Translations under genes and position numbers: made by a program
Assembly: GCA_017654855.1 (NCBI GenBank)
Contig: CM030336.1
Span: forward strand, 3,596,001-3,660,000
Direction of reading: 5' to 3'
DNA: 64,000 nucleotides
Origin: Podospora anserina
Lineage: Eukaryota
Notes under the pieces: generated by a model
Database searches by the model: none
What the model was told of the DNA's origin: nothing
Seen by the model: the letters and a program-made list of their open reading frames with translations, nothing else
In this document: in pieces, positions 27,553 to 55,240 of the stretch
How the letters are laid out: each line of letters begins with the position of its first letter
Position numbering within the stretch: position 1 is the stretch's first letter

Positions 27553-29235
27553 ATGCCTTCCACCGCTCTGCGCATGAAGACCCTCAGGGCCTACGCCAAA
27601 TATGGCCAGAACGTGAGTAGTAAAGTAGAATAGCTCATCACTCATGTTACTCACGCAAAACCCCCCAGTACGGCGCCCTCTTCACCCGCGCCTTCTCCCT
27701 CACCCCCCGCCGCTACGAGATCAACAAGATCTACCCCTCAGCCGCCGAAGCAATCAAGGACATGAAGCCCAACTCGACCCTCCTCTGCGGCGGCTTCGGC
27801 CTCTGCGGCGTCCCCGACACCCTCATCAACGAAGTCCACAACCGCCCCGACCTCACCGGCCTCACCGCCGTCTCCAACAATGCCGGCACCGACACCTCGG
27901 GTCTCGGCAAGCTCCTCAAGACGAAGCAAGTCAAAAAGATGATCGCCTCGTACATTGGCGAGAACAAGACGTTTGAAAAGATGTACCTCACCGGCGAGAT
28001 CGAGCTCGAGCTCACACCCCAGGGCACCCTCGCCGAGCGTTGCGCCGCCGGCGGGAAGGGTATCCCCGCCTTTTACACCCCCGCTGCTTTTGGCACGGTG
28101 GTTCAGACGGGTGAGTTGCCTCTGAGGAATAAACCCGACGGTACACCGGATGAGTTTTCTTATCCGAAGGATGTGAAGGTTTTTAACGGCAAGAGCTACT
28201 TGCTTGAGCATGCGATTGCGGGTGATGTTGCTTTTGTCAAGGCGTACAAGGCGGACAGGCTGGGGAACTGCCAGTTTAGGCTGGCGGCTAACAACTTCAA
28301 CGGGGCGATGGGGAGGAACGCAAAGATGACGATTGTGGAGGCGGAGAATATTGTTGAGCCGGGGGAGATTGCGCCTGAGGCGGTGCATTTGCCTGGGATT
28401 TATGTCCAGAGGGTGGTTCAGTCTACTGCGGAGAAGGGGATTGAGAAGTACACGTGGGCCAAGGACCCCAACGAGGAGGCTGACCCCAAGGCTGCTGCTG
28501 CGTTGGGTAGCGGTGAGACGAGGGCGAAGAGGGAGATGATTGTTAAGAGAGCTGCCAAGGAGTTCAAGAATGGCATGTATGCCAACCTTGGTATTGGCAT
28601 GCCTATGCTTGCTCCGGGTTTTGTGGGTGAGGATGTGGAGGTTATGCTCCAGAGCGAGAATGGTATTCTTGGTCTTGGCCCTTACCCACGAAAGGGCGAG
28701 GAGGACGCCGATCTTATCAACGCCGGCAAGGAGACTGTCACCCTCCGCCCCGGCGCCTCTGTCTTCGGCTCTGAGGAGTCTTTCGGTATGATCAGAGCTG
28801 GCCGTATCAACCTCACCATTCTTGGTGCTATGCAGGTCAGCGCCAGCGGTGACCTCGCCAACTGGATGTTGCCCGGCAAGGTCAAGGGCTTCGGTGGTGC
28901 CATGGACTTGGTTTCCAACCCCGAGAAGACCAAGGTCGTCGTCACCATGGAGCACACCGACAAGAAGGGCAACCCCAAGATTGTCAAGCAGTGCGCCTTC
29001 CCCTTGACCGGCAAGGCTTGCGTCAGCCGTATCATCACTGAGCTTGTAAGTTTTTCATCACACCCCCCCCCTTAACTTACTGGATCCTAACAGTGTCCAA
29101 CAGGGTGTCTTCGACGTCGACTTCGCCCACGGCCTCACCCTCATCGAGATCGCCCCCGGCGTCACCGTCGAGGAGATCAAGGCCAAGACCGAGGCACCCT
29201 TCCACGTTGCCGAAGACCTCAAGCCCATGCTCTAA
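27553..29235 (+). CDS. Succinyl-CoA:3-ketoacid CoA transferase (SCOT), mitochondrial; introns 27613-27668, 29046-29103
   Basis: [34 protein letters not shown], catalytic [16 protein letters not shown]; basic presequence-like first exon. Confidence 0.95.
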
Positions 29236-29575
29236 GTCTGAGGATCGGATGAGAGAGAACAGTAGAGAAGAGCAGATTTCCTTAACAGGTTTTGGGAAGG
29301 TGGTCGTTATGGGTTGGTTGGCTTGGGTAACCGAAAAGATTGAATGGGAATATGTGTATATATATAATGCTGTATGTGTACATTAGGCATGGTTTTGGCT
29401 TGTCTTTTTTTAGGATCAAAAAATAGCAGGCCTTTTGGTTATCATTTTCTTTTCTTGCAAAATGTGGTAAAATCAAGGCTTTTGAGCGCCTCATCTCTTA
29501 TTCCGCGGCAAACAAACAACATCTGTATCATATGACACCGCCCCCCCCCCCTGGAGAACTTCATTTGGGAACAGC

Positions 29576-30196
29576 TCAAGCCTTACCCAACACATTCTCC
29601 GCCAAACTAACACTGGTACCCGTGTTATCCGGCTCAACAGCCACACTCTTCACCTTGCCGCCCTCAACAATAATCGTAAACCTCTTCGACCGCTCATTTC
29701 CAAAAATAGCCTTTCCATCCCACAACATATCAAGCGCCTTGGTGAACTCGCCAGACGGATCAGCCAGGAAGCGCACCTATCATTCTTGTTAGCTCTTATA
29801 GGTCTCTTTTATTTATCTGTTATCACGTACGTTCTCCTTCCCCTCGGGATTCAACACATCCCCCCAAGCCTTCATCACAAAAACATCATTCACGCTCACC
29901 ACCGCCACCTGGTCATACTCCTCCGCCTTGGGGTGGGCCAGAAACCCAGGCACATGCGTCGCCGAGCAGGCTGGCGAGAACGCGGCGGGGACACCGATGA
30001 GGATCATCTTGTTGAGCTTGGAGGCTTCATCGGCGAGGTTGACCTTGTTGCCGGGGGAGGACTCGTGGAGGATGGCGCCGACGTCGGGGAGGGGCTGGCC
30101 CGGCTTGATGAACCGGGTCGTGGTGGTAGAGAAAGCTCTAAGGGGGGTGGTAGCGGGGCGGAGGGCCGCGCGGGCGAGGGGGCGGAGGAGGGACAT
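29576..30196 (-). CDS. Type II peroxiredoxin (Prx5/Ahp1-like), probably mitochondrial; intron 29830-29777
   Basis: GVPAAFSPACSATHVPGF, VSVNDVFVMKAW, RFLADPSGEF, RSKRF; Arg-rich presequence MSLLRPLARAALRP. Confidence 0.92.
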
Positions 30197-30591
30197 CCTT
30201 GTGGTGATATTCAGTTGGAATTGGTGAGGTTTGTTTGGGGAAAGACTGGACCTGACCTTGGGGAGAGACAAGGTGCAATATGTACGGAGATTGGAACAGG
30301 CGGGAGAATATCGCTGTAACCGAGCGCGGAGTGGTAGACGTCGGGTCAGTTGGAATTGGCGAGAGCAACTGGCGGGCGGGGGAGGGAGCTTTAGACGAAT
30401 GACATCACCAGCCCCTTGTCAGAATACAAGGGTTGAAGGGAGCTTGGGCCATCCCGTGGGAGCACTTTCGGTTCTCAGGGTTACGGATACATCTCGACCA
30501 GATCAGTTCACCTTCAACCCTGGCCTTTTTCTAGGTACAAACACCTGCACGGAGGGTCCTCAAAGACTGCAAAGACACAATATCAAGCAAG

Positions 30592-31008
30592 ATGGCCTCC
30601 CGCGCCATGTGGTACGTCGTCGGGACCAAGAAATCACCCCACGGCACCCTCTACATGCACTGCAATGTCAAGCCAGGAGCCAGCAAGAACCGCGAGGGTG
30701 TAGCTTCGGTGGGCGAAGATGCAGTGGAGATATGTGTAGCTGCACAAGCGAGAGAGGGAGAGGCCAATAAAGCAGTCATCAAGGTTCTCAGCGAGGTACT
30801 TCTGCGCCGAAAAGATAATCTGTTCGGATTGTTTCTGACACTGGCTTGACAGGTTCTTGACCTTCCCAAGTCCAACCTGGAAATTACCCAGGGCCATAAA
30901 TCGAGAAATAAGACTGTCGCCGTGATTGGGCCGTGGGTCAACTCTGGCGAGGAGGAGTGTCTCAAGCGGGTCAAGGATTATCTCGACAAGGCTGTGGAAG
31001 CGTCCTGA
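30592..31008 (+). CDS. DUF167/UPF0235 (YggU-like) protein; intron 30796-30852
   Basis: [54 protein letters not shown] is the YggU pattern. Confidence 0.88.
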
Positions 31009-31166
31009 CGGTCCGGATTTAGCATTGCTCCGCAACACTTGTCCAGCGACGTCGAATAAGGCCCGAATGTTGGCACACGCTATTACCGCAGAGGCGCATC
31101 CGTCTGACCGTTTCCACGCCATAGACACAAGCATAAGCCCTTCCCGGCCTTTTGATCCGCCAAGCG

Positions 31167-31893
31167 TCATCTTACGCCACGGCCCCGACCTCGGGCAGTA
31201 CTACTTGTTCCCCTTGTTCCTCGAGTACTACTACTTGCGCCACGCGCACCCCCTCTTGTCGTTCCTCCCCTCGTTGACGATGTTGTCCCCCTAACTGAGG
31301 GCGGTGGTACTCGGGATGCGCGACCTGTTGCAGAGTATTTCGGGGCTGGCTTCTTGACGCTCGCTGGTTCGGCGAATGATGTATCGGTTGTCCTAGACCC
31401 AAGTTAGCTGTCTGACATCTGCCATCTGATGTCTAGATACCCACATAAAAGTAGGGTCCCCATCAAAGCCATCACTTGATTGCTGCTGCTGTTGCTGCTC
31501 TTGTAACTGTTGTTCCTGCTCCCGCGCCCTCATCCTCCTGAAACTCTCCGCCATTGGCCCCTCTGGAAAGTCTACGCAGAAAGCATTCATGTTGAGCCCG
31601 TAGAGGAAACTGGCAAAACTCTCGCTAAAGCGCGCCAACGACTCGTGCATCAGCTGGAAGTGCATCATGTTCGCCTCGAGGTCGGCCATGGCATCGGAAA
31701 GCTCCGCAAAGGCGGGCTCGAATGCGTTGAGCGGGAAGGACGCATTATCGCCCTGGACACTAGATCGGGCTGATTCGCGAAACGAGGAGCGAGAGGAGGG
31801 TCGGAGAGGGGTTGTTGGTCTGCTTCGTGATGTTGAACGGGGGCGCCGTTCTCTGTTGCCGTGTCTGTCTCTTTCCCTCTCGTCGGACGGCAT
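31167..31893 (-). CDS. DAM1: DASH complex subunit Dam1; intron 31444-31393
   Basis: RPTTPLRPSSRSS, FAELSDAMADLEANMMHFQLMHESLARFSESFASFLYGLNMNAFCVDFPEGP; spliced tail TFMTTDTSF..RGRGRGVR*. Confidence 0.93.
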
Positions 31894-32768
31894 GGTGACG
31901 GGTGGTGTTTACTTTGTTTTGTTTGAATTTGGACTTTGATGCCCGAATGCAAGCGGGGCTAGCTAGCAATGGGACGCGATGACGCGCTGGCGCTGGCCTT
32001 GTCAATTTGGTGCCCCGCCATCACTCAAAAATGCGACACGTGCCACCTACGGCTAGAAGCGCTAAAACAGGCTGAGGCAGCGGGATGGCGGGGTTCAAGA
32101 GATGGAGATGTTCATGCAGGACAGGTTGGATATCTCGGAGGCACCGGCAAGACAGAGATGAGCTTTAGAAGACGGGAATTTCCCCTTTGATCCAAGCGGC
32201 GCGGCGGGCACCCAAAACTCTCCGGAAACCCGGTTCTTGAATCCAGGAGTATTGCCCTGTTCCTGCTGGTTGGGATTCCTGCAGTGCCCAGTTCCAATTT
32301 TCCAGGGGAGGCCCGAGGACCGGGTTTCCGTTGCTCGATATCGATGTCGTCGTACCCCGCTGCCAATTGATGGCCCGTTTTCTTGCAAATTCCATACCGG
32401 CTTCCGCTCCGCTTCGTCCATCTTTGCCGTCTCTTCAACCCTTCCGTGTCCTGTGTCCGTCTCTCTTCCTTCCGGTCACCTCACTCCGAAATCACCTAGG
32501 ATACCTCTGGAGTTTAGATGCCGGTGTAGGTAGTGTCACCTTTCAACGTAGGTACGTAACCACCCGCTGCGCCTCCACTTGTATCTACGATCTATCCTGC
32601 ATTTAATGTCATTTTTTTATTTGCGCCCTGAGAGCTGACACGGCACGTCCGGGATAGCCAGGTCTCCTTCGCAAATCATTGTTCGGCCGTTTTCCGAGTT
32701 TGCTTGGCCTTGTTGGGTCTCTCCTGTTCAGCCGTGATCAGAGTGTGATCAAACCACCTGCTCGCCTT

Positions 32769-34713
32769 ATGCAGACCTCGCTGCTTTTTAGTGTCTCGCG
32801 GTCTGCTTCCTCCCGTATATTGTTATTCACGTCAAAAAAGGGTTTCGGTGTTTCTTCCGCGCATCGTTACATACGATTTAACCAGGTCAACTCTTCAACG
32901 TCATCATCGCTCACCTCACTCAAACGTGACCTCAGAAGCTCACCCAAGACTGAAAACTCACCTCTAGTCCAGCGGCAGTTTCAGCAAAGGCAACCTCTCC
33001 AGAGCTCCGCTTCAGCACTTTTACTCGCTGCCCTTACCGTTGGCTTAGTATACTCAGCTTACTACTCCTACCACAAAACCTCACCCAAACCCACCTCTCA
33101 CTCTGAACCTCCTCAAGACATCACCCCCGAAGACCTCACAGCCATGACCTCCGAACTCGCCGCCGGCCGCCCAGGCAACCTCACTTCGGAGCAGGAAGAG
33201 AAGCTCCGCCAGCTCTGGAAACTCATCTTCCAAGTGTGCCGCGTAGGCGAAGAAAACCAAGCTCCTGCTGCCAACGTCCCTCAGACAACAACCACTATTT
33301 CCGCTCCCCCAGCAGAGGAAGAAAAGAAAAAGTCCCGTATGACCTCCCTTTGGTCCCGCTCCAGCAAGGCCAACAAATCGGAATCTGACGCCGCGTCCAC
33401 GACTTCTTCTACCGCCCCAACCACCGCCGCCGACGGCGCCCCTGTCACCATCCAGCTCTCCCTCGGATCAAAGGATGGGGAGGCAGACAAGTACGGGCAA
33501 ACAAAGCACTTTTACGAAACGCTCCAATCCTACCCCCCCTCCGCAATTAGGGATACCATCTGGAGCATGGTCAAGCACGACCACCCTGATGCTTTGGTTT
33601 TGCGATTTCTCCGCGCTCGTAAGTGGGATGTGGAAAAGGCGTTGATTATGCTTGTGTCGACGATGGCGTGGAGGGCGAAGGAGATGGATGTGGATGGAGA
33701 TATCATGAAGAATGGGGAGCTGGAGGCGGTGGAGAAGAATGATGGGATCAGCAAGGACTTTTTGGCGCAGATAAGGAAGGGGATCAGTTATGTTCACGGA
33801 TGTGACAAGCAGGGGAGGCCGTTGTGTTTTGTGAATGTGAGGTTGCACAAGGCGGGGGAGCAGAGCGAGGAGAGTCTGGAGAGGTATACGGTGTATTTGA
33901 TTGAGACTTGTCGGATGCTGTTGAGGGGGGGGGTTGATACGGCGGTGAGTTTTATTCGCAAGTTGGAAACAAGGGGGATGGGATTTAAAGGTGGTGGTGG
34001 TGGGTTGCATGCTGACGATGAAGGGGACCAGACGATTGTTTTTGACATGACGGGATTCTCGATGGCGAATATGGACTATACGCCTGTCAAGTTTATGATT
34101 AAGTGCTTTGAGGCTAATTATCCGGAGTGTTTGGGGACTGTGCTGGTTCACAAGGCTCCGTGGATTTTTCAGGGTATGTCTTTTTTTTTAACGATCCTCC
34201 TCTTTTATCGGTTGATACTTACGAAAAATAGGCATCTGGAAAGTCATCCGCGGCTGGCTCGACCCCGTCGTCGCCAACAAGGTGCACTTTACCAATAACG
34301 CCACCGAGATGCAAGAGTACATTCCCCTCAAGCACATCCCCAAGGACCTTGACGGGCAGGAGGACTGGTCCTACAAGTATGTCGAGCCGGTGCCGGGTGA
34401 GAACGACAAGATGAAGGATACTGCCACGAGAGATGAGCTGTTGAGGCAGAGGGCGGAGCTTTACAAGCAATATGAGGAGGCTACGATGGAGTGGATCAAG
34501 ACTGCGGATGCGGGGGTGAAGAAGAGGAGGGAAGAGATTGCGGACAAGATGAGGGAGGATTACTGGAGGGTTGATCCGTATATTCGGGCGAGGAGTTATT
34601 ATGACCGCACGGGGGTGCTGTTGCCGGGTGGTGAGGTGGATTGGTATCCGGGGGAGAAGAAGAATGGGGAGGTCAAGAAGGAGGCGGTCACTTCGCCGGA
34701 TGATTTGGATTAG
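32769..34713 (+). CDS. CSR1: CRAL-TRIO/Sec14-family phosphatidylinositol transfer protein Csr1-like; conserved start at 33144 and an upstream in-frame ATG at 32769; introns 33945-34031, 34174-34231
   Basis: GRPGNLTSEQEEKLRQLW, VKHDHPDALVLRFLRARKWDV, IVFDMTGFSMANMDYTPVKFMIKCFEANYPECLG, YWRVDPYIRARSYYDRTG. Confidence 0.92.
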
Positions 34714-36501
34714 GGGGCTAGACGGCGACTGCTGGTGAGGAAGATGAGGAGGGGGAGGGAGGGGTGGAGGAGTTGTGTATAAGACAGATGATAGATCCTA
34801 ATTACTGAGTTGTTGTGTATAGAGCAGGTATGTTTTCATCTTGGGAGAATGGCTAGGCAGTATATTACTTCCCTGCCAACAAGAACAAAAGTTTTAATCC
34901 TCATGTTTGTGTGGATCATGCCAAATTAGGAAGTTCGCTCGGGTAAGGTGTTTGACTCAAGGCCGGAGAAGGAGATTACATTAGTGGCTGGGTAGGGTCG
35001 GCTGCGCACTCGCTGTCTAGCTTAACCTATCAATGGGTGGGCGCGGGTGGCGGCTTATTAAAAGTAAAAAAAACACACGCTAGATGGAGTCTGAGGTCTC
35101 AGGGAGGGGAAGGCTTATTGAAGTCGTCCGACGCCCGGTGAGCTTTTGTGCTCTGGCATTCTTGCTGGCTTTCATGATGTTGTAGTGATTATTTAGTTTA
35201 GTGGGCAGCGGTGAGTTGCTGTCCAAGCATGCATTGCCGTGGTGAGAGACACAGCCCTGCGTTGCCGGATGTTGCGAGTACGATCGGAGGGCAGTGTTCA
35301 GGAAGATCTTTGTGGTTATGAGCTCTGCCAGATAAGAAAGGGGTGTAGGCTGGGGGAAACGATGCTTTGTATATCCCAGACAGGCCATGATGTTCATACC
35401 ACTTATAGCCATTTAAATCGTAAATTACATAAAGCTCTGGCATTTGAGGGCTGGCTTGCTGCTTCTACATGCCCGGTTTGTTGAGTCCCCCGCCAATAAC
35501 GGCTGGTCAGTCTAAGGCGCCGGGTTTAGGCCGGAGTTCTTAGCTATGTGTATTTAAAGACCTCTTCTTCGTGTGCGATCGGTAACATACTGTAACATAC
35601 TGGAATTCAGTAACACACCCCGAGCCTAAGGTTGTCCCGACACGATCACACGCTTTTCGTGTCCTATATTGGAGTAACCAGAAAGACACTGTCTTTTATC
35701 GTAGCACTTTGCCGCAACGGCAGGTTGGGTTGTTTACAGTCCCCATCACATCGTGGCAACCAACGAGCTCAATGTCACCAGCATGAGTGGTTATGCTATC
35801 CTAAAAACAGAGGTCTTGGGGACCATTTTCGATTTATCTGAGCTTATTCGGTGAGTGATTCAGATAGCAGCCTGCCATCCACGAACGTCTTGGCCGGCAG
35901 CAGGCTAAGACACAGTCCTCAGAGTGAGGCTGCAAAAAGATGGCGTTTCATCACACCACCCTCGACGATAGTGTGTCTTTCGAGGTTGATATGCATACTG
36001 CCGTGAGAAGAAGCGGGGCAGGCACCCGGTTGATTGGACTTGTATGCTTTTGATGATGCTGTGCAGCAGCGCCATAACATGTGTTATTAAGACATATGTA
36101 GTTCTGGGCGGTAGAGTGCATGCAAGTGCAGATAACCCACGTATGGTTGTCCAATCGAGCCTGTGGAGTTCTTCGCCGGCGGGATGCCCAGCATGCTCCG
36201 GAGCTTGGTGGCGGCCGTGCAATGTGGCCGCGAGCCTTGCCATGGTGAGAAAAAGCTAGGTTGGGCGACAAGGCTCTGAGAAGGCGTCCGACAGTGGAGG
36301 TAAAAGGTTGCATTGGGTGTAGAACAATGGTGGGCGGTCTATATCTGCGCGGGGGGAGGAGGATGTTCTGGGTAGGGTATAATAACGTGAGTTCCCATTT
36401 GAGTGGGTTGGGAAGATCAAGAATGCCTCGCCATTCTTCCCGTTCTCTCACTCCAAGTGCCTTACATTGTTAAGCTTACCCGGTATCTAGTTTCCACAAA
36501 G

Positions 36502-36810
36502 ATGGATGCCCAGGTCCCACAGATGATCAGACAAGAGGTTGATAATTACAGGCTAGAATGGGAGAAACTCCGTGACTACCTTTATACTTTGTTTCCAGAG
36601 TACACCGAATACATCGAACTTGAGGTGGGTCAAGGCTTTTTCCACGCAGTCGGTTTGCCCTCTCTGCTTTCAGCTACCTTTTCTAACCCGGCTTGTGCAC
36701 AGACACATAGAAACGACGTCTATATCGCCTGGATCCCCAATGAATTGACACCAACCGAGATGAACCATATTTACACCAATCTCAGGACGCGCAGGAAGAG
36801 GATTCGGTAA
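36502..36810 (+). CDS. Small hypothetical protein, 76 aa; intron 36625-36702
   Basis: ATG in good context (CAAAGATGG) and a canonical GTGGGT..CTAAC..CAG intron. The product MDAQVPQMIRQEVDNYRLEWEKLRDYLYTLFPEYTEYIELETHRNDVYIAWIPNELTPTEMNHIYTNLRTRRKRIR has globular amphipathic patterning. Confidence 0.7.
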   Translation: MDAQVPQMIRQEVDNYRLEWEKLRDYLYTLFPEYTEYIELEVGQGFFHAVGLPSLLSATFSNPACAQTHRNDVYIAWIPNELTPTEMNHIYTNLRTRRKRIR

Positions 36811-37813
36811 AAGGTTTAGGCCTGCGCCTTGCTGTGATGTTAGGTTGATCAGGGGGGGATAAGCTCATGTGATGTGATGGTTTCAGAATTAATGACATCT
36901 GAGCTTTCTGTTGTATTTTGGAGAAACCTGTCTGGTGATTGGAATCTTCTCTGGATGTCAAATTTGGGAGCCTAGGGTAGAAAGACAGGCAGACTTCTTG
37001 TGGGATGGGGGGAAGCCAGTGGGGCTGGCTGGTGTTAATTAGGCAGTGCTGCTGTGAATAAACCCCAAACTGCATAGGTATCTACCTACCTAGTCAAGAT
37101 GAGCCTCATTTTTATACCATTTCCACTGACCATCTTAAATGCCCAGTGTCTATTTGACAGCTGTTGGCTGCTCAGAGTGCGCACTGATTATTTATTAAAG
37201 CTTGTTTTGTTTCAAATCGGATTGTATCACATATTACGCCCGTAACAAGGCGGACTGCCCGAGCTCTGGCGACTGTGCCAATTTGGACCTCACCAAGCAC
37301 CCAGCCCACATGCATGGAATGATCAATTTCCGAACAATTACCAACCAATGCCAAAATATCTGCAGAGTCTTCACATTTCACATTTCCTGCTCAGAAGCTA
37401 TGGAACTTATTGGCGATCCTATGGATCATATAACACGACGTCCCTTCAATACCAGTAGACCTTGCCAGCCCACGGTCAGGTTGTACACCCAGCCTTTTTC
37501 CACGAATGCTGTGCACAAAAGTAGCCAACCCTTTCTGTTTGCAGCCATGTCGGAGCCAGACAGCTGGAAAATGCCTGGTTAACGTGTACAGCCACCGCTG
37601 TTTCCTTCGCCATCTTTATTTTGCTCTCCAGGCTCACTGAACATTTGGGGGGTAACAACATAGCCGCGATGCGAATACTCAAAAGTGAAATTACACCCGG
37701 CGAAGCAATCGCATCCCCTCAACCACTTCGTGTATAAGATCCCTCGTTGCCTCAGCCAGGTAAGAGTCTCCGTGGAAGAAGGGTATTAACTGCGCAACAC
37801 ACAAGCTTCTCAA

Positions 37814-40044
37814 ATGTCTACCCCGAGCACCATGGTCGACTGTTACGACCAGCTTGAATCCTGCTGTGACTTCGCAGAAGCATGGCCTTCGAACCTTTTC
37901 CGCTCAAAATGCTTTCGACACACTTCGCAGTCATATCGAAAGCGAATCGCCGAGGTGCAAGAGCGGCTTTTTGATCCCAATCCTGAATATGCCTTGGTGG
38001 AGTTCCTTGAAGCATTTCATGGGGAACATGGCTTCCATTCAACAAAGTGCAGTAGCCTGGTTGACTTAAAGCGACATCTCCGAATCAACCGTAAAGACCC
38101 GATATGTCGACATGTGTAAGTCACCTTCCCCTCTACCCAGGACCGCTGGCCAGTGCTGACTATTCGAACCAGATTCTTCGAAGCCGAACACTCCCGAGCA
38201 CCTCTAGACTGTTCAAAAGAGATGTTTGTATTCAGCATGTCGTTTCTTCAAGTCATGGCTCCTTTTGTGGATCTCCTACTGGGCTTTGGGCAGTCGCAGA
38301 ACAGGAAGGAGTTCCATTATACATCTTTCCGTCACGAGAACTATCTAGTGGCGTCAAAAGTCCAGAATTTCGAAATTCCACGGCTGGGTCGATCTGGTCT
38401 GGAGATCAAGCTCTGTTACAATCTATGGAGCGTGGAGTCATCTGTTGGAAACAACTCAGCGGGTTCATTCCGACAGACAGCCCTCTATCACTCTTTCGAC
38501 CTCCGGTCTGGCCGGTCACTTTGGGTAAACATCAGCGTTAATGCCGAGATGAAAAATCGGATCACCGACGCGGCGAGTTCATATGAGGAATTAACAACAG
38601 AGGCGTTGGTAGACATCCAAGGCTCTTTCTCCGCAAGTCTTACTACCCACCTTGTTGCTTTCGAGTGGTGTTCAGAGAACTGGCGTCAATATATTACCAA
38701 ACTGGAAACGACTTTGCGAGCAATAATCAACAAGGTACAGCGTGCTCCCGTCGGGAAAATGGAGAGCACTCTTGCGCTGGATACCAAAAATCTTCTCAAG
38801 GCACTCAAGGCTCCTATAAGCTCTTCACAAATAGTCGAGTCGAACTTGGTCACTTCCCCTGATCTTGTCAACCCAGGAAGCCCAGCCAGCCCCTTCAATT
38901 CCACGCGAACCTTCACTCGGCGGAGTACATTGAAGTCAGCAGTTATCAATCCGCTGAACACAAGAGCGTCTACTAATTTGACTGCAACAAGTATGCAGTC
39001 CTTCCCGGGTTCCCCTGTCCGGCGAGAAACATTCTCGCCCATACTTGGTTGCCCACCGGAATCATCAACTGAGAAGAAGGGCCGAAGAATCCACCATGAT
39101 CAAGATCCGTTTGACATGTTGAAAGACATTTCACTTGAGAAGTTACAAGAGCTCAACGGAATTGGAGCGGATCTGCATACCGCTGGCCTCGTGATGAAGT
39201 TGGACTCCGACGTCCTTCGTGATGTAATGAGACATTATCAAAGCCTCGTTGAAGCGGAAGAGTTTCCAGCGAACCTCAAGGCTTGTAGGCCAGTGCTTGC
39301 TGAGTTCTCTCGACGCGCCATGTCGATTGTGAGAGCCCTAGAGATGGAGCAGACACGGATTGCAACGCTGATGCTCCTCTTCCATGATGGCAGGGGACTG
39401 GTATGTTGTGCAACTTAGTTGAACCGCAAGCCTATTGCTAACACGAGAGATCATCACAGTTTGAGCATGTCCTCCAGTTTCGCAACCTGGAACAGAGCAA
39501 GCTCTTTAATGCGACTGCCAATATAAGCCAACAGCGGATGGAGGAATTCACGGAGCAAATGCACAAATCGACACTCAATATGGAGTCAGTGACCGAAAGC
39601 ATGCACGTAATAGCGCAGAAGACCGAGAAGGACACATCTTCGATGCATGTTATCACTATTGTCACCCTTCTCTTCCTACCTGGAACCTTCGTTGCCGTAA
39701 GACTCGGCCTGCCGACTTTGATCGCCCATGCATTCACGACTTTACTAACATACAGCCAGACATTCTTCGGCAGCGGTTTATTCCAGTGGGATGAAGCGAA
39801 TCCGGAAATGAGCTTTCCAATCTGGAAAGGGGAATTCTTCAAACTGTTTGCCAAGATATGCTTCCCCCTCATGGGCGCTACTATCACCATTTGGTGTTTC
39901 GTTTCCTATCTGCCTTTTTGGAGGGAGTGCTTGCGAGCATGCTGGAACAGATTGAGAGCATGTTGGAACAGAAAGAAGCTTGCAGACGAAGAGCAAGGAA
40001 CAACCGCAATGGGTGTTGCGGAGAGGGAATTAAAGCTAAAATAG
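37814..40044 (+). CDS. Fungal CorA-like domain protein with two C-terminal TM helices, ~683 aa; introns 38116-38172, 39401-39459, 39697-39759
   Basis: Four exons splice in frame. Motifs DPICRHVFFEAEHSRAPLDCS, FLQVMAPFVDLLLGFG, CYNLWSVE, FRQTALYHSFD, helical stalk, then IAQKTEKDTSSMHVITIVTLLFLPGTFVATFFGSGLF and a second TM FAKICFPLMGATITIWCFV. Confidence 0.82.
39931..39972 (+). repeat. In-frame 21-bp tandem duplication (LRACWNR x2) in the CorA-like C-terminal tail
   Basis: TTGCGAGCATGCTGGAACAGA / TTGAGAGCATGTTGGAACAGA. Confidence 0.85.
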
Positions 40045-40892
40045 GGGCAAATATGATGATCGGTATCTAGATGGTACATATGCAAGACCTGAGGAGTTCC
40101 TTCTCGAGCATCTGGGCGGCCTCATCTTGATCTGCCGGCTCATCAAGCCTGTGGAAAGCCAAGTCTTCCCCAAAGCATCAAGGACGCTGCATCGCCATGT
40201 ACGGTGCAGCAACGCCAGGTCAACTGGGCTCTTGGCGCAAGTTCATAAGGCACAGCTATCGTTCACCAGAGAACCGGTAGGCCAATGAGTGGTCGCCTCC
40301 CGCGTCTTCGACATCAGGCTAGCCGCTTTCCCCGCAGAAGGTACAATGCCGTGAATGCCTGGCTGGGCTGTTGTGATGCGTAACTCGGCTTCCACTCCCG
40401 CCTTGCAGAATGCCTCTTGGGTCAGGTACTCTGCACAAGGCTTTTCACTAGGTTTGCCCTACCGTATGTCATGAGAAGCTTTTGCAGCCCAGTTGCTTAT
40501 GGCATCAATTAATGTTAATCCCGATTCTTACGTTGTTGATAGCGGTTAACCTGGCGGTCAGCGGTTGGGAAGCGGATTGGGTCGCACAGGCAGACAGGCG
40601 TCCAAACTGGACAGGATGCACCACCCACCTCGAATGAACAGAGCCTTGTGAGGTCAACCTGGACATAATCACTCACTTTCACCGTCCCCAGCGCGTCTGC
40701 GGCTGCTTGTGACCAGTTGGTTGGTTTTTTCCAAGCTTCAATTTAACTCCGCACCCATCTGCATGCGAAGCCCAATATGACAAAGCGCCCCCTTTACCTT
40801 ATATCTTGTCATCGTTTTGCCCTTCATTGAGGGCTACCCTTCACACCTCACCACGCGATCGCGGGGTAATCGGTATCAGCTCAACCCTCAAG

Positions 40893-43800
40893 ATGACCAG
40901 GTGGTTGGACCCATTCATCGGCTTCCAGGAAGAGGTCCCATCGCTCTGCTCACGGGGCATCAATGGCTTTGGCCAGGAAGATAGCTATATCCCTTACCAG
41001 GCGTTGGAAAAGTATTGGGATCCCGACAAGATCAACGAGGTGCTCAATTCCCGCAAAGGCGAGTTGCAAAACCTCGATGTCGAAACTATCCAGACAAGCT
41101 TTCTCCGCATCTTCTCCAACCTGGTTTTCTGTACGAAACATAACGCCTTCAGGATCAGCTATCTTTCCAAATTCATCAACAATCATATTGACGACCACAA
41201 TCTTCCCCTATTGCGGGATCAGCATCCTCACTCTGACCCTGCCATGGCCATCTTTTCCACCGGAGAGGAAGGTCTCGCAGCATGGGAGGCGTTTGACAAG
41301 CACCAGTTCATGTTCAACCCCTTTATGCTGGAGACAAAGTACCGACACAACCATCCCCTGGCCGAGCGGTGTATCGTTCCATGGAAACGCGTCGGTGAAC
41401 TATCCAGGTCGAAAAACAACTCCACCGTCGTTGAGAAATTCAAGATCAACTCGGACAGCGGGTTGGGTCAATTGGTGGTAAGCAAAAGGCCTCTATATAA
41501 GCATGCTGAATATCGAAGGTGTAGGCTGAACACAGACACAGGAAACCATTGCCGTGAAGAAGATTTGCCTACGACACGACAACGAGGAGCTCACACGCGA
41601 AGCCGAGGAAACGTTCTCAAACGAGCTGGTGGCATACATTGGGTTGAAGAACAACTCATCGCAAGAGGATGCATCGCGATACTTCCTCCGATATTACGGC
41701 TCGTTCAGGCAGGGGGGTTGGGGCTATGTGCTCCTTGAATACGCCGACAAAGGAAGCTTGACAGAATTTTACGCTAGGAACAATATGCCCTACTACCCCT
41801 GGCAGGTGTACAATGTATGGAAAGCCATGCTGAATCTTCTCAGAGGCCTAGAGCTCCTTCACCATTTTAACAATCAGGATGCCTGCCCTGCTGTGCGAGG
41901 CATCCATCAAGATCTCAAACCGTCCAATATCTTTGTGTTCGAGGACCGCGAAGACCTCACCGAAGACAAGCCGCCCTACAAGCACAAGTACATCTTCAAG
42001 ATTGGCGACTTCGGGTTGAGCAGCATGCGCCTAAGGCAGACTCTCCACCCAGACAACAAAGGGACCAAGATGTACGGGGCACCAGAGATCACCACACCCA
42101 CGGCTGAACTTCGCCATTTAGATGGCGGTGCAACTTATAAGGTAGACATCTGGTCAATGGGGTGTATCTACTTCGAGATGCTCATTTGGATCAACTCTGG
42201 TGAGGCGGGGCGAGACGAGTGTCTGGTCAAACGTCTCAAAGAGGGCGGCCCTGATGGGGCATTTCACAACCGGGGAAAAGAGCTTGCCGCCCTCAAGGAG
42301 ATGTTGGAGCTAACGCTCTCCTGCAAACGGCAATGTGACGACCTTACCCAGCCTATAGCTGAACGAATCATGCTGACAATGCTATGCGTTGACCCTTGTG
42401 ACAGATCGAAAGCCAAACAGCTTATACGAGAGTTTCAGGCGATCCTAGAAAAGACTGCTGGAGGAGACAACGCCCGCAATGGTCCGAAACCACGTACGGC
42501 TCTTACAGGTACCCGCACTCAACCCAGTCACAACTCGCGTGGCAAAGCAGCCCATTTATCCAACGCTCAACCGCGCGCTATCTACGGTACTCATCCTTCG
42601 GGCTCACCCGATCTCATGATAGGATATCCTTCACGTGTTGCAGCAAACGATCACAACAAAAGCGAAGACGGCGAGGACTTTGGCAAGGCAGGCCATTCTC
42701 TTGGGCCACCGCTAGGCCAAGTACAAGAACCGCCCGCTCATCGCGTCCATCCTTCTGCCGCATATCGTGGCGACATCCCTACCTCTAACTCACGGACTCC
42801 GCCTAGGAGCCACGGTACCCGGGCCAGTGCACATGGTGTGCCACACTCCAATCAGCACAACCTTGAAGATGTTGCTGTTCCCTTATTTGGCGGACAGCGC
42901 CCTCCATCATCTGCTCTTTCACCTACGAACAACCAAGGTCTAGGGCAGGCATTCTTTGTCACACAGCGGCCGTTGTCAGTCGATTCCGGAAGGGCAGCGG
43001 ATAGGCATTTAGGTTCCATAGAAACCATGATGGGTTTTAAGCCTGCTTACTTTCAGCCCGATACAACCTCGCCTATTTACAGCCCCAGGTCAACCCGACA
43101 GGAGAAGTTGCCTGCCTCGAGACCAAGCAGTGATCCAACCGCCAGGCGTGGGGAACAGGATGGTCCTTTCGTCTGGGATATTCTTGTTTACAAAGAAAGT
43201 AGCAAGAAGAAGAAATGGCCACGTGGATTATTTGAACAGTTGCTGGGACAAGCCGACGCTCTGAAGTATCAGCAAGACAAAGAACAGGTGGGGAACAATC
43301 TTTTGTCTTTTAATCATTAGCACCCAAACACTATGGCGTTCATTTATTAACCAGAAGTGTAGATATTCATCGTCGATGACTCCGAAAGCATGTGGGAGTA
43401 CTGGAAAAGTGTTGTGGATACTTTCGAGGCGCTGTCCTACCTAGTCAAGGCGTGTGATCCCGACGGCATTGAGCTCTATCTCATCTCGGAACCACAGAAG
43501 AAGAAGAAGGCGAACAAGAACTCAACTACCGACCTTGTAAAGTTTTTAAGAGAACTTAAACAGCCCACCAAGCAGAACAGCAACATCGAGTCGAGCTTCA
43601 GTCGCATCTTGGAGAACGTTAAGGTGACGATCTCGGACACGGCGAGCAATTCAAGCCGTGTGTCGATTTTCAGACCCCAATCTGGAGCTGGAATCAGCAT
43701 CTATTTTTTTACCGATGGTGTGTGGGACGATGACGACAAGCAGGGGAACCCAAACATTGCTCACCCGATCCGAAATTTGATACGACAAATGCAGCAAAAT

Positions 43801-44276
43801 AACCACGACCGAACCAAAATCATGATACAATTTATCCAGTTCGGTAACGACCCAGCTGGAACCAGGCGCCTGAGATATCTTGACAACGGGCTCAAGTCAG
43901 AGCTGGATGAGTTGTAAGTTCAACTGTTCAAGTCTCGCCTTTATTTCAGCTCTCGTTGCCCTGGCTTACTAACTTTACCGCCCTACCCAGTGATATCGTC
44001 GACCGCAAACTATGGAACAGCAATGTCCGGAAAATACTGATCGGAAGCCTCAACCGCAAAAATGACAAGGACAGCGATGACGAAGAACATGACGTATTCC
44101 ACAACGCACAAGAGGGTGACAGATTGGGTATCCAGGACAACAGTGTGGCGAGCTCCTCGCCCTTACAAACCACGTGGTTGCCTCCGAGACAGACCACCCG
44201 GGCCTCCTCGAACTCCCAGGCGCATCCCACGAATTGTCCATTCAGAATTGGACGAGGCGAGTGTACATGCCGTTAG
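40893..44276 (+). CDS. Protein kinase - low-complexity linker - vWA domain fusion, ~1055 aa; introns 41478-41541, 43288-43362, 43914-43990
   Basis: Kinase motifs IAVKK, GIHQDLKPSNI, KIGDFGLS, YGAPE, DIWSMGCIYFE. vWA with MIDAS-like IFIVDDSESM, DPDGIELY, IYFFTDGVW, IQFIQFGND. All exons splice in frame. Confidence 0.88.
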
Positions 44277-45177
44277 TATGTGGGCTGAACAACGAGACTT
44301 TTTGAGGGGGATATGCTCTTTTCTCCTCTCTCCTACCGTACTGAACCCTTCCACTTTCCGTTCATACCCCACATAAAGGACGACTGTTCAGGGTATCTCT
44401 CTTCTATGTACACATGGAGTTTTGGAGATCGAGATCATTTTTCTTTTTCTCGTAGTCGTCAGGAGTCTGTGCTTTCTTCTCATTTTTTTATATACTTTCG
44501 AACAACAGAACATGATTGCGGGGACTCTGGTTGGTATATATCTTTTACACAATGGGCAATTAAAGAGTCTTCGTGAGGCTGAGCATATATGTTGGGTTTA
44601 TGAAAGGAAGGAAATTCGGTAGATGATCTAGGTTTGAGGCGTTTTTCTGGGAAAGCAGGGAATGGTTTACATGATCTGTCTTGGTGTTCAGGAAAGACGA
44701 AACAAAGATACCCTTCTTGTATATAGTGTTTATATTACGGCCAGTATATAGCCTTTCTCGTTTATTTCTCCGTTACCAGTTCAAAACATGGCCTTTTCAG
44801 CGTTGGCAAGATATATGGGTGTATATCTGTACATACCTGTTACCTTTTTACAGACATAAGAACGTCGTTAAGAGGGGGTTTGGAATGAGTGTATAAGATC
44901 TGAAAGCTTCCAAGTTACCTATGGTTCTTCGAGACTTCTTGAATGTTTCTGACACTTCTTTGCTCGCTTCCCCATTAATTTTGCTCCCACATTAAACTTT
45001 CCCTCAGGCCCAGCCCAGCACGCCCTGAGCCAGTCAAGGTAGCTTTTAACCATGTTTTTCCTGCCACTGGCAATTGTTTAAGTGAGTGTCCCCTCCCGGT
45101 TCATCCTTCATCACTTTTTTCCTCATTTCTCTAAATCCATCAACACTTTTTGCTCAGACAATAACCTCCCCTCCATC

Positions 45178-46160
45178 ATGCCTGCCGGACCACAAACCCA
45201 ACAGGCGAATACCGAAAAACGAGAGCCCTTGAAGAAAGCAGTCGAAGGTCTTCTCTCAGACGAACCCCTGTTTGCAAACGAACTGGAGGATTTTCTAGAA
45301 CAGCGGAGGAATCGCGCCTGCGCCGACAAAGTCTTGACAAATGTCGCGGAACCCAAGGATGAAGACCCAGCACTCGTTCCTGAGGTCAAAATGGAGGAAA
45401 CCCCTGCACCGATGACACCTGCAGAGCAAGAGATGGCCGAATGACGCGACCTGATCAAGAAACTTGAGGGCTGGTAAAAGGAGAAGTTCGCAAAACTGAC
45501 ATAAAGGTCGGTGACGGAGTGGAAGCCCTTTGATGACTTGCAGATTGCCGCGTTGATGGCGGTTGATATTGAGTCACTTCGGTACAACGTTGACCGAGCA
45601 GACCATGGTTTCTTCTCTACCGAGGGCAAGGAACGCTTCCTTGACGACGTGATCCTGGTGCCCTTTCTCGTTCGTTGGTGTACGTTGATTTCCTCCCATG
45701 TCAGACTTTATCATCATTGCTGATCCGAAAAAAAAAACATACACAGGCATGTCCAAAGACAGGTGGACGAACATCCCTTCGAACCTCAAAGACGGAGCTA
45801 GAAGATATCATCTTCGGGAAGAAAGTGGGGCCAGATAATTTCGGCTCGTCTTGTCAGTCGGCCGAAGATAATGATGAGGAGGATGAAGATGGGGGTGGGC
45901 CAAATCGCAAACGGAGAGTCGGCAAGAAAGGCAACATCAAGAAGAGCTCCAAAAAGAGGAAAGTCACCAAGGAGAGAGCTGTCGTCGAAAGCGATACCCA
46001 CCCCTCCAGGCGCAAACCTTGATGGGAAGAGTTGGCGGACCTGCCTGATTGGTTTGGCCTCGATGGCGGATTCAAGGGATTGCCAAAGCCCGACTTGTAC
46101 GGATTCGAGGTGCTGGCCGCCGTGATTGATAAAGACAAGGCACCGAAAGAATCTTCTTGA
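45178..46160 (+). pseudogene. Pseudogene of an unknown, possibly nuclear protein; probable intron 45680-45746
   Basis: A protein-like frame continues through stops at 45442 (TGA), 45475 (TAA), 45502 (TAA) and 46020 (TGA): ..EQEMAE*RDLIKKLEGW*KEKFAKLT*RSVTEWKPFDDLQIAALM.. and ..KKSSKKRKV..RRKP*WEELADLPDWFG.. Confidence 0.6.
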
Positions 46161-47253: not shown

Positions 47254-48330
47254 TCATCCAAAACTACTCAATAAATCCCCAATCTTCTGCGACTTCTTCT
47301 TCGGCTTTACCCCCGCGCTCTCAGTAGTAGCCTTCCTCTTAGGCTGCGTTACCACTACCGTAGGCGCTTCCTCAGCCTGCACCTCAACATTCCAATCCCT
47401 GGAAAACTCCCATATGCACAAATTGCTCAGTAAACCCTTATTGGTGTTCACCTGTCCCGGCTCCGGCGGCGTCACCAAAGTGATGGTAGCATACGGATTA
47501 TCCAGTCCCAGCTCCTCATACTGCAAAGCCATGTCCATGTCCCAGTACACGTACCGGTAACACTCCACCGGCGCCCAGGCAGGCGCGTCCTTCAGCGGCT
47601 GGCCGATGACCGGCGGCGGGTTTGTGATTGGCGAGTTGACGTACACTGCCTTGATCTTGGGGAACTTAGTTACATAGTGCAGCATGTGTATACTGAGCGA
47701 ACCTGGCATGGCAAAGAGAATGAGACTGCGGAGGGAAGGGAAGGGTTCTTTTTTCTCGCTCCAACCTCGGATGAGGTGGTTGTTTAGATTCAAGCTCGGT
47801 TTGTTGCACGAGAATCCCGAGTGAGCGGCTGTTTTGATGCCGCGGTCTTCCATGTGCAGGATGACCAGGCTGCGCAATTCGGCGAGGAGGAGGAGGTCGC
47901 GGGTGTTGAATCTCTCGGTATCCTTAATTTTAAGAATGGTGAGGAAGTGAACGTTGCCCGGGTGCGGCTGCATGGTTTGGATGCGTCTGGGTAACTCGTC
48001 CGGCTCGACGTCATCTTCCCAGCAGAAAGGCTTAACACCGTGTGGGGTGTTTGTCCGTGAGGTGTTGATGTAAATGGCATCGGCGAGGAGTTGCCATTGG
48101 GTGTATGTCATTCTAGGTGGTGGTGAGCGGTGTGGAGGGTCTGGATGAGCGAGAGAGACATCGACTTACATTGGATCCAAGAGCCTAAAAAGCTGCCTGA
48201 GGCGGGGTTCTGGTAAAAGCACGAGATGGTCTGTTGTGAGGCTGGCCATGTTCTTAGCGACCGCGCGCATACACATAGAGACCAGATCCATCTTACGGAC
48301 CACATCCTTGGGACCAGTTATCAAAGTCAT
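47254..48330 (-). CDS. Hypothetical protein with LRR-like segments and a basic C-terminus; intron 48169-48113
   Basis: A GTAAGT..TAG intron joins two ORFs in frame. LRR-like LAELRSLVILHM, FPSLRSLILF, FPKIKAVYV; C-terminal PKRKA..KPKKKSQK. Confidence 0.7.
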
Positions 48331-50528: not shown

Positions 50529-51599
50529 TCAAGGCATACCAGCCAACCCCTCCGTCCCCACGGCCTCCTTCCAAAACTCATCAAAATCCACCCCCTTCTC
50601 CTTGAACATATCCCTAATCTTCTGCGCCACCTCCACCTGCCTCTCCTCCGTAAAACCCCCCGGCCTCCCCGTCTCAAACTGCACAACCTCGATCCACCTA
50701 AAGAACAAATCCTCCTGCCCAATCGCCGTGAGCGCATCCCTAAACTTGAACACCTGCTTCCTTCTCTCATCCTCCTTCGTCCCCGGCTTAGCCCCCGTGT
50801 CAGAGAGATCAATGCTCAACCACCCGAAATTCTCATGGTACACCAGCACCAACGTCCCAAAGACACGTTCGTCAATAACCTTCTTGTCGGCCAGCTCCGT
50901 GGCGGCGACCATACCCGCCCAGTCCAAATCCCAATCCGCGTCCATAGTCAGGTACCCAGTCTTTTGCTGCAGGAGCATAGGGGACGTGGCGGAACGGATG
51001 TGGTTCCAAAACACCTTGCGGAGGTCGTCGTTGGCGAGGAGGTCTTTACCTTTACCTAGGATTTCGACATCCCACTTGCGGGAGCGGCGGAGGTAGATTT
51101 CTGAGGGGCGAAACCCGACTTTGTAGCGCCAGTGGCAGGGGGAGCCGGTGAGGGGGGAGCCGATGAGGAATTCGTAGGGCCAGGGCCAGACGAAGATTGC
51201 GAGGGTGAAGTCGAGGAGGAAGGTGGAGGCGCGGCGGAGGAGGACCCAAAGGTATTGGGAGGTGGTGAGGTCGGTGAAGCGGAGGGTGGTGGGGTTTTCT
51301 TGGCCGGAGAGGGAGAGGAGGAGTTGGAGGTACCAGGGAAAGATGTGGCGGAGCCGGAGGATGAAGAGAGCGAGGACGAGGAGATTCATGGCTACGGGGA
51401 CGAGGAAGATTTTGCGCTTGAAGGGGGAGGGGCGGGGGTCGAGGTGGGAGATGTAGATGTGGGAGGGGTCGAGGGTTTCTGTTAGGGGGTTGAGGGAGGG
51501 GGGGGCCACCTGGAAGGGTTTGGGGGGGGTGTCTGGGGAGGGGGAGGTGGATTTGGGGGTGAGGCGGGCTTTGCCTTTAGATGTTTTGGTGGGCGCCAT
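50529..51599 (-). CDS. Hypothetical membrane protein
   Basis: Long ORF with host-like codon usage and two hydrophobic segments (IFLVPVAMNLLVLALFIL; FLLDFTLAIFVWPWP). Confidence 0.8.
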   Translation of the reverse strand: MAPTKTSKGKARLTPKSTSPSPDTPPKPFQVAPPSLNPLTETLDPSHIYISHLDPRPSPFKRKIFLVPVAMNLLVLALFILRLRHIFPWYLQLLLSLSGQENPTTLRFTDLTTSQYLWVLLRRASTFLLDFTLAIFVWPWPYEFLIGSPLTGSPCHWRYKVGFRPSEIYLRRSRKWDVEILGKGKDLLANDDLRKVFWNHIRSATSPMLLQQKTGYLTMDADWDLDWAGMVAATELADKKVIDERVFGTLVLVYHENFGWLSIDLSDTGAKPGTKEDERRKQVFKFRDALTAIGQEDLFFRWIEVVQFETGRPGGFTEERQVEVAQKIRDMFKEKGVDFDEFWKEAVGTEGLAGMP

Positions 51600-52018
51600 G
51601 ATGGGCGGGGGTGAGAGGTATTGCAAATCGATATGTAAAGAGAAGTGAAATATGAGAAAGGGGAAAGAAAACAGTGATGAAATTTGGTGGTGGTGATGAG
51701 GAAAAGTGAGAGACTGATGGTTGGTGAGTTGTTCACGGTCTCTCTGCAAATGAGATGAGGTTTGGCTATTCAGGGGATAACCCTAACCCTTTTGAGCGTT
51801 ACATCGGGGCCCCGGTTTTTGGAAAGCGCCCGCTAAATCCCGGTGGACGGATTACGGATCCCTGTCTCTCGGCTGGGAAAGCTTGAGCCTTGGCTGAATT
51901 TTTGAAAGTCCAAGAATTCCATGGATGCTGGGGAGAGAGAGAGAGATAACGCGCCAACATCGCAACCCCTCCTCTCGTTTCCAGTCCGAAGCGCAATGCT
52001 CCAACAGTTTTCTACATC

Positions 52019-55000: not shown

Positions 55001-55240
55001 GTGGTTTACGAGGGTGAGTTTACTCTACTTCTGCTGCTGCTAATGATGATGATGATGATGATGGGGGTGCTAATGCTGTGACAAATAGGGACGATCGATG
55101 AACTCAAGCATGGCAAGAAGGAGGTGACCGAGATCAAAAAGGGTGGTGAGTGTGGTATCATGTTCGAGGGGTGGGATGAGTTTCAAGAGGGCGATCGTAT
55201 CCAGATGGTGGAGGAGATTAGGGAGAAGAGGAAGTTGTAA
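52019..55240 (+). CDS. IFM1: Mitochondrial translation initiation factor IF-2; probable intron 52040-52117 and intron 55014-55088
   Basis: [64 protein letters not shown], last exon [14 protein letters not shown]. Confidence 0.95.
52555..52636 (+). repeat. In-frame 24-bp tandem repeat (FNPSDRPT-like) after a poly-Pro tract in the IF2 N-terminus
   Basis: TTCAACCCATCCGACAGACCTACC x2, flanked by a degenerate unit upstream and a partial unit downstream. Confidence 0.8.

Follow-up and report, generated by a model that had tools for sequence, protein, structure and literature searches.

Conserved adjacency of genes for a small protein, a CorA-like membrane protein, and a kinase-vWA protein in Podospora anserina and distant Pezizomycotina

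The 64-kb stretch of fungal DNA analyzed here (the window), whose best protein matches place its source in the Podospora anserina species complex, carries three genes on the plus strand that encode a small protein (G1), a CorA-like membrane protein (G2), and a protein kinase fused to a von Willebrand factor A (vWA) domain (G3). Homologs of these genes lie side by side in very distant fungi, and the balance of evidence tilts toward an ancient Pezizomycotina cassette that was kept together by selection, not a chance neighborhood, and whose products most likely form one membrane signaling unit. The original prediction for this DNA had proposed a module for conflict or cell death; the idea of a module gains from the recurring neighborhood, whereas its conflict and cell-death half remains without support. 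The gene models, obtained by reading the DNA and translating candidate models, correspond to PODANS_5_8280, PODANS_5_8290, and PODANS_5_8300 and are as follows.

36502-36624 and 36703-36810, plus strand: G1, small protein of 76 amino acids (aa), with an in-frame 78-nt intron (36625-36702)
37814-38115, 38173-39400, 39460-39696, and 39760-40044, plus strand: G2, CorA-like protein of 683 aa, with three introns
40893-41477, 41542-43287, 43363-43913, and 43991-44276, plus strand: G3, kinase-vWA protein of 1055 aa, with three introns

Conserved neighborhood of the three genes

All three genes carry consecutive accessions and locus tags (…8280, 8290, and 8300) in four Podospora species. In addition, the GenBank accessions of the CorA-like and kinase-vWA genes follow one another directly, on one contig, in each of the five further Sordariales examined (Triangularia verruculosa, T. 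setosa, Cercophora samala, C. scortea, and Podospora appendiculata). Metagenome contigs were then scanned with an alignment of the CorA-like exon 2 only, which yielded 80 loci that are 26 to 43% identical to the window and that form 52 groups at a nucleotide identity of at least 90%. The kinase-vWA gene was sought beside the CorA-like gene by tblastn with ten kinase-vWA proteins, and it adjoins the CorA-like gene in 30 of the 52 groups. In 24 of these it lies downstream, on the strand of the CorA-like gene; in the other 6 it lies upstream, 4 times on the opposite strand and twice on the same one. The usual layout is head to tail, with spacers of 442 to 2288 bp. Of the groups in which no kinase-vWA gene was seen, 3 have at least 3 kb to either side of the CorA-like gene, 2 are informative on one side only, and the contigs of 17 are too short to tell. 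The vWA part was seen in 22 of the 30 groups with a kinase gene; the contig ends before it in 7 of the other 8, and the remaining locus (L070) has room but no vWA match.

The small gene upstream came to light when all six-frame open reading frames (ORFs) of 31 representative loci and of window positions 26001 to 55000 were clustered. Of the 32 groups whose upstream flank is long enough, 29 contain a match to a hidden Markov model (HMM) of this small ORF, in every one of the 29 on the strand of the CorA-like gene and 446 to 1151 bp upstream of it (median, 623 bp). Of these 32 groups, 23 have both partners, 6 have only the small gene (and four of the 6 lack a downstream flank), 1 has only the kinase gene, and 2 have no partner. 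Apart from the trio itself, the most widespread family of flanking ORFs reaches just 4 of 32 sequences, and the genes beside the trio in the window do not recur at the other loci. Thus, the trio travels as a unit, because the flanks are unshared while order and orientation change; and G1-G2 is the tightest link, since these two genes stay together in each of the three arrangements. Filamentous fungi lose gene order rapidly, except within metabolic clusters. The survival of the cassette across classes, with reordering and turnover of its flanks, is therefore strong genomic evidence of shared function.

The named relatives of the CorA-like protein are spread over the Sordariales, Xylariales, Diaporthe, Fusarium, Thelonectria, Talaromyces, Delitschia, Pyrenochaeta, Glonium, Bacidia, and Alyxoria, and those of the kinase-vWA protein include Phaeosphaeriaceae, Lophiotrema, and Fusarium. 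Two metagenome loci with the full trio (L003 and L004) are 87 to 92% identical to Glonium stellatum over stretches of 65 to 75 aa. Look-ups in the Atlas returned unnamed Ascomycota clusters only.

Gene models and the encoded proteins

The span of the cassette given in the original prediction, 36502 to 44276, proved exact: the ATG of G1 starts at 36502, and the stop codon of G3 ends at 44276. Contigs from four public sequencing runs, belonging to four studies, were aligned to positions 36400 to 44400 (8,001 nt). GT..AG joints were found at all seven introns, with the G1 intron spliced in three of the four runs and the other six in all four. These spliced joints indicate that the contigs derive from RNA, a source otherwise only guessed for these runs. 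The translation of G1 equals PODANS_5_8280 letter for letter, in agreement with the predicted length of 76 aa, and the G2 model is identical to the 683-aa ORF of the RNA contigs (P0257); two RNA-contig ORFs match the G3 model at 1054 (P0272) and 1053 of 1055 residues. The earlier description of three intact, co-oriented, spliced genes was thus borne out, with intact models and all seven introns removed in the RNA-derived contigs. The three genes are real, spliced, and expressed.

In each of the four runs, a single contig (7190, 7034, 6895, and 7032 nt) spans G2, the spacer, and G3, covering 37277 to 44400 and beyond, and G1 lies on a separate contig. A contig that bridges two genes is no proof of a single transcript; the contig of about 7 kb could reflect co-transcription, read-through, or a bicistronic transcript. 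Beyond position 44400 the contigs extend for another 242 to 461 nt, so the AT-richer stretch that had been called a decayed right flank is at least partly a 3' untranslated region. The window differs from the RNA contigs of the four runs at three positions in 8,001 nt.

40045-40892, plus strand: G2-G3 spacer, 848 nt, unspliced and within the same RNA contig of about 7 kb as G2 and G3
40432, T>C: difference between the window and the RNA contigs of the four runs, in the spacer
41299, A>T: difference between the window and the RNA contigs of the four runs, in G3
42376, A>T: difference between the window and the RNA contigs of the four runs, in G3

G2 was predicted to be a CorA-like protein that lacks the GMN signature and has two C-terminal transmembrane (TM) helices. 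A hydropathy scan agrees with this description, placing the two helices at about residues 571-592 and 615-642, and the site of the CorA GMN reads GSG in G2 and GSG, GAG, SSG, STD, and others in its relatives.

38843-39115, plus strand: Ser/Thr/Pro-rich variable loop of G2 (about residues 325-415)
39643-39777, plus strand: TM helix 1 and the GMN-equivalent position (GSG at 39769-39777), interrupted by the intron at 39697-39759
39835-39918, plus strand: TM helix 2, from the hydropathy scan

The Pfam CorA family (PF01544) matches spliced G2 over residues 499 to 593, which comprise the stalk and TM helix 1 (E = 3.9e-5), and matches 13 of 28 relatives of G2 at E < 0.1 (best, 1.7e-7). The family PF26616, "CorA-like transporter domain," is precomputed on 85 of 86 G2 homologs, and a local Pfam scan of the G2 ortholog P0001 gave no family. 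The matches to Pfam CorA indicate that G2 is a distant relative of CorA, not a canonical member. Since GMN is lost, classical Mg2+ selectivity is unlikely, and G2 probably carries or senses something else. Inside the variable loop, at 38909-38935, a conserved Arg (residue 350) is followed by Ser/Thr; the Arg is kept in at least 90% of 22 sequences, although the surrounding sequence is otherwise unalignable. The Ser/Thr after Arg350 is a candidate phospho-acceptor site. The 63-nt intron at 39697-39759 lies in frame at the pore loop and contains no stop codon. It is spliced out in all four runs, but it is treated as coding in public models of G2 orthologs from three Podospora species and from several Sordariales, where it adds 21 residues between TM helix 1 and the GMN-equivalent position, as in the 704-aa P0001. 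Pfam CorA gives 12.7 bits with the intron retained and 23.6 bits once it is removed.

G3 comprises three conserved regions.

40893-41477, plus strand: N-terminal domain of G3 (residues 1-195), conserved in 11 homologs and in the metagenome loci
41545-42426, plus strand: protein kinase domain of G3 (residues 197-490)
43363-44095, plus strand: vWA-like domain of G3, with the intron 43914-43990 inside and a putative metal ion-dependent adhesion site (MIDAS), DDSES, at 43375-43389

Residues 1 to 195 have no Pfam match, and their Atlas neighbors are unnamed Ascomycota clusters only. The kinase domain matches Pkinase (PF00069) with E = 3.5e-23 and 82.8 bits, well above the cutoff of 31.7. Across 11 kinase sequences, no variation occurs in the Lys, the alpha-C Glu, HQD..P.N, the Asp of DFG, PE, or DIWS.G. 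The glycine-rich loop of kinases has the consensus G-x-G-x-x-G; no such loop precedes the catalytic Lys in any of the 11. All motifs listed in the original prediction (the AVKK lysine, HQDLKPSN, DFG, APE, DDSES, and TDG) are present in G3, which is predicted to be a catalytically competent Ser/Thr kinase. The predicted fusion to a vWA domain also holds, with Pkinase above its cutoff and the vWA fold coming from structure modeling. An AlphaFold2 model of this domain, made without the part encoded by the last exon, reached a predicted local distance difference test (pLDDT) score of 81 and a predicted template modeling (pTM) score of 0.80, and the top Foldseek rows for it were all vWA domains (best E, 5.9e-4; TM-score, 0.54 to 0.57), as would be expected of a Rossmann-like vWA fold at the C terminus of G3. 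All of 18 relatives have the MIDAS Asp and the T of TDG, and 13 have the full D..S/T set. The MIDAS-like residues are largely kept, and metal binding is putative. In the P. anserina S mat+ strain, the kinase model (P0260, PODANS_5_8300) has 511 aa, compared to the RNA-supported 1055 aa that include the linker and the vWA domain.

G1 is the sole ORF in the 64-kb window to match the small-ORF HMM at E < 1 (E = 0.13, and 0.0075 after one iteration). Against an HMM of 13 full-length non-Podospora members, it scored 24.2 bits over both exons (E = 3.6e-5; 27,709 sequences). The exon boundary of G1 falls at the same position as in its small-protein relatives, and a motif in the second exon is common to both. 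Judged by its sequence, G1 is a diverged member of the small-protein family encoded upstream of CorA-like genes. An AlphaFold2 model of G1 (pLDDT, 80) has the order beta-alpha-beta-beta-alpha; Foldseek with this model returned generic folds only (best E, 0.48), and a VIA-wide fold search returned generic ferredoxin-like domains, with a best Z of 5.5 that is within the background range of the tool.

Searched among 1.84 billion representatives, the small-protein profile matched 454 representative clusters with E values of at most 1e-3, 103 of them at 1e-10 or below. The clusters are mostly 36 to 150 aa long, the named members come from Cadophora, Pyrenophora tritici-repentis, Zopfia, and Lecanora, and many public models retain the intron. 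One match, the 976-aa P0219, was rejected as a false positive, being a repeat protein. The original prediction had proposed a check for conserved neighborhood and fusions; besides the recurring neighborhood, one annotated Talaromyces protein joins a G1-like domain to a CorA-like protein. In this protein of Talaromyces islandicus (P0034, PISL3812_09729), residues 1 to 45 form a G1-like domain with both exon motifs (E = 3e-5 among 97 proteins) that replaces the CorA-like protein's own N terminus. The joint model reflects either a natural fusion or the merging of two gene models, and the adjacency is the same either way.

The cassette lies between ordinary genes at 24411-34710 and 51950-55078 for an ARIH1-like RBR E3 ligase, a CoA-transferase, a redoxin, a Sec14-like CRAL/TRIO protein, and mitochondrial IF-2; no Pfam family matches the ORFs at 45082-46022, 47257-48165, and 50532-51782. 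Around the cassette, neither direct nor inverted repeats of at least 25 nt were found, and an Rfam search gave no match. The GC content at third codon positions (GC3) is 0.58 in G1, 0.54 in G2, and 0.60 in G3. The contrast in codon skew between the trio and its flanks that had been described earlier is weak: some flanking ORFs are indeed higher (GC3 of 0.65 to 0.74), but others in the window are equal (0.55 to 0.56). At four related metagenome loci (L015, L017, L060, and L062), one further flanking gene, with ORFs of about 270 to 310 aa, is common; its position is downstream of the kinase gene at three of the loci and, at L017, upstream of the small gene.

Proposed mechanism and alternative explanations

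The mechanism that we infer as the most likely is a kinase-regulated, GMN-less channel of the CorA type with a small accessory subunit. G2 would be a channel-like protein of the CorA superfamily, with two TM helices, that has lost the Mg-selective GMN signature. G1, a ferredoxin-like protein of a family of 60 to 76 aa encoded directly upstream on the same strand, may be an accessory or regulatory subunit of G2, a role suggested because the small gene never leaves the channel gene. G3 would dock through its C-terminal vWA/MIDAS domain, in a manner dependent on divalent cations, onto G1 or the cytosolic part of G2, and would then phosphorylate the conserved Arg-x-Ser/Thr site in the disordered loop of G2 and so gate ion flux. 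A kinase-gated channel complex is suggested because a docking domain and a kinase are encoded beside a channel-like protein with a basic Ser/Thr site in its loop. A complex prediction of G1 with residues 1 to 560 of P0001 (ESMFold2, without supplied alignments) returned a score of 0.01, compared to a mark of 0.34 ("no answer"), and counts neither for nor against the complex. The fullest version of this proposal is a "split channel-kinase," in which a GMN-less CorA-type pore, a ferredoxin-like subunit, and a MIDAS-docking kinase would work as one complex across Pezizomycotina and turn a cytosolic cue into ion flux, possibly to the point of regulated cell death; we regard it as tentative, with the odds somewhat against it.

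Several observations weigh against the view of the trio as a selected signaling unit built from these protein types. For the named genomes, the consecutive accessions give adjacency that rests on how GenBank numbers coding sequence features, and among the metagenome loci a taxon match exists for L003 and L004 only, to Glonium over short stretches. The scores of G2 for Pfam CorA (23.6 bits; cutoff, 27) and of G3 for Pfam VWA (20.6 bits for the exon alone; cutoff, 23.8) fall below the curated cutoffs, and just 2 of 18 relatives of G3 match VWA at E < 0.01. When profiles were compared to PDB sequences, the CorA-like profile had one match only, a designed protein at E = 2, and the best match of the vWA profile was an unrelated serpin at E = 0.25. 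The first Ser of the MIDAS is Ala in 5 of 18 relatives. Moreover, the kinase gene is absent at L027 and L028, where the small gene is present, and both partners are absent at L073/L074 and L076. Such loci mean that the wider CorA-like family includes partner-less paralogs, and the association is therefore not obligatory across that family.

Three other explanations were weighed. It is highly improbable that the genes are unrelated neighbors that have merely not yet been separated. Gene order within the Sordariales alone could be inherited, but the trio recurs in three different arrangements at loci only 26 to 43% identical to G2, with unshared flanks in which no other ORF family is widespread, and the divergence of the metagenome loci argues against an origin from few closely related genomes. 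Co-regulation without physical coupling, in which shared regulatory DNA or overlapping transcripts such as a G2-G3 read-through would link genes whose products act separately in one broader process, seems unlikely. Both the RNA contig that reaches from G2 through G3, spacer included, in each of the four runs and the usual head-to-tail layout with short spacers would fit it. However, adjacency survives in 6 groups in which the kinase gene has moved to the other side, breaking any shared transcript, and G1 has a contig of its own. In addition, the vWA/MIDAS domain is an established protein-docking module, and it has no other obvious partner here.

The third explanation, to which we assign a low probability, is a conflict module for non-self recognition, defense, or regulated cell death, with the kinase-vWA protein as sensor, the CorA-like protein as pore-forming death effector, and the small protein as partner. 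CorA-family membrane proteins are reported to be effectors of bacterial type III CRISPR signaling (PMC10600005), and vWA domains to be common in bacterial conflict systems (PMC7159879); the latter paper has 0 occurrences of CorA. A search with PADLOC gave no match for G1 or G2 and matched G3 to mad6 and PD-T4-6 over the kinase domain only. The mad6 score of 101.5 bits is above that of Pfam Pkinase, but the match covers the generic kinase fold only and probably reflects generic kinase similarity; an NCBIfam scan likewise gave only subthreshold generic kinase matches, with MADS6 scoring 22.8 bits on the homolog P0094 against a cutoff of 460. G3 also evolves faster than its neighbors, with about 95% identity to the window within the species complex (999 to 1011 of 1055 residues) compared to 98 to 99% for G1 (75 of 76) and G2 (671 to 677 of 683), yet 22 to 24 of its 43 to 55 substitutions fall in the disordered linker. 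Against a conflict role, the Pfam scan gave no match to HET, NACHT, HeLo, or any other death domain; the cassette is not bordered by repeats; four separate studies yielded RNA contigs; and the window differs from those four RNA data sets at just three positions. Furthermore, each named species has one CorA-like match, save Xylaria bambusicola (two assemblies), and the locus is syntenic in four Podospora species, so that it looks single-copy and syntenic. The original prediction had named single copy, synteny, and ordinary purifying selection as observations that would speak against it; this is largely what Podospora displays, with one match per species, synteny, and high G1 and G2 identity, and the idea of conflict, allorecognition, or cell death gained no support. 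The conservation evidence lowers the standing of the conflict reading, while a role in regulated death or a sensor/effector logic is possible.

Significance and comparison with known systems

A literature search found nothing on the cassette, on Pa_5_8280, Pa_5_8290, or Pa_5_8300, or on PF26616 proteins, with supplementary gene lists outside the search; the "CorA" text matches in PMC4986451 were to the word "coral." The components themselves belong to known superfamilies, and channel-kinase pairing is an arrangement with precedents. The cassette links three uncharacterized families: PF26616 CorA-like proteins, kinase-vWA proteins with an N-terminal domain of no known family, and small proteins that are often misannotated. 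If true, the split channel-kinase would be among very few nonmetabolic clusters that ascomycetes of different classes have in common, and G2 and G3 might share a transcript. The hypothesis can be tested directly in P. anserina, a tractable and harmless model fungus. Corrections to gene models also follow, namely the in-frame intron in the pore loop of G2 and a length of 1055 aa, not 511, for G3 of S mat+.

Like the CorA/Mrs2/Alr1 Mg2+ channels (PF01544), G2 has two C-terminal TM helices after a long helical stalk. In contrast to them, its family has GSG, GAG, SSG, or STD in place of GMN, and its cytosolic domain is a separate family (PF26616, precomputed) with invariant motifs of its own; G2 further differs in its long Ser/Thr-rich insert, its Pfam score below the cutoff, and the partner genes alongside. 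With the type III CRISPR CorA effectors, which are activated by SAM-AMP, the cassette shares a membrane protein of the CorA superfamily encoded beside its signaling enzyme (PMC10600005). Podospora, however, is a eukaryote; its cassette lacks both Cas10 and a nucleotide messenger, and the membrane protein is paired with a kinase-vWA protein.

A further likeness is to the MIDAS docking of ubiquitin-like domains in MDN1/Rea1: the model of the G3 vWA domain matches the MDN1 MIDAS chain 8ql1_C (Foldseek row 28; TM-score, 0.52), and G1, as a small alpha/beta protein, is a candidate MIDAS ligand. The cassette differs in having no AAA+ motor, and G1 is ferredoxin-like, not ubiquitin-like. As with fungal het and NOD-like receptor (NLR) loci, it is a small cluster of co-oriented Podospora genes that includes a membrane protein; unlike them, it contains no HET, NACHT, HeLo, or repeat domains, displays no sign of divergent alleles (3 differences in 8,001 nt), and is deeply conserved rather than lineage specific.

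The coupling of a cation channel to a dedicated kinase is known from TRPM6/7, where the kinase is of the alpha-kinase type and, in TRPM7, forms one polypeptide with the channel. A vWA domain is reportedly fused to an alpha-kinase in Dictyostelium vWKA. The Podospora cassette would share the channel-kinase coupling of the former and has the vWA-kinase fusion of the latter, but the kinase of G3 is a classical Pkinase, and its channel-like protein and kinase are encoded by separate genes, accompanied by a third that encodes a small protein.

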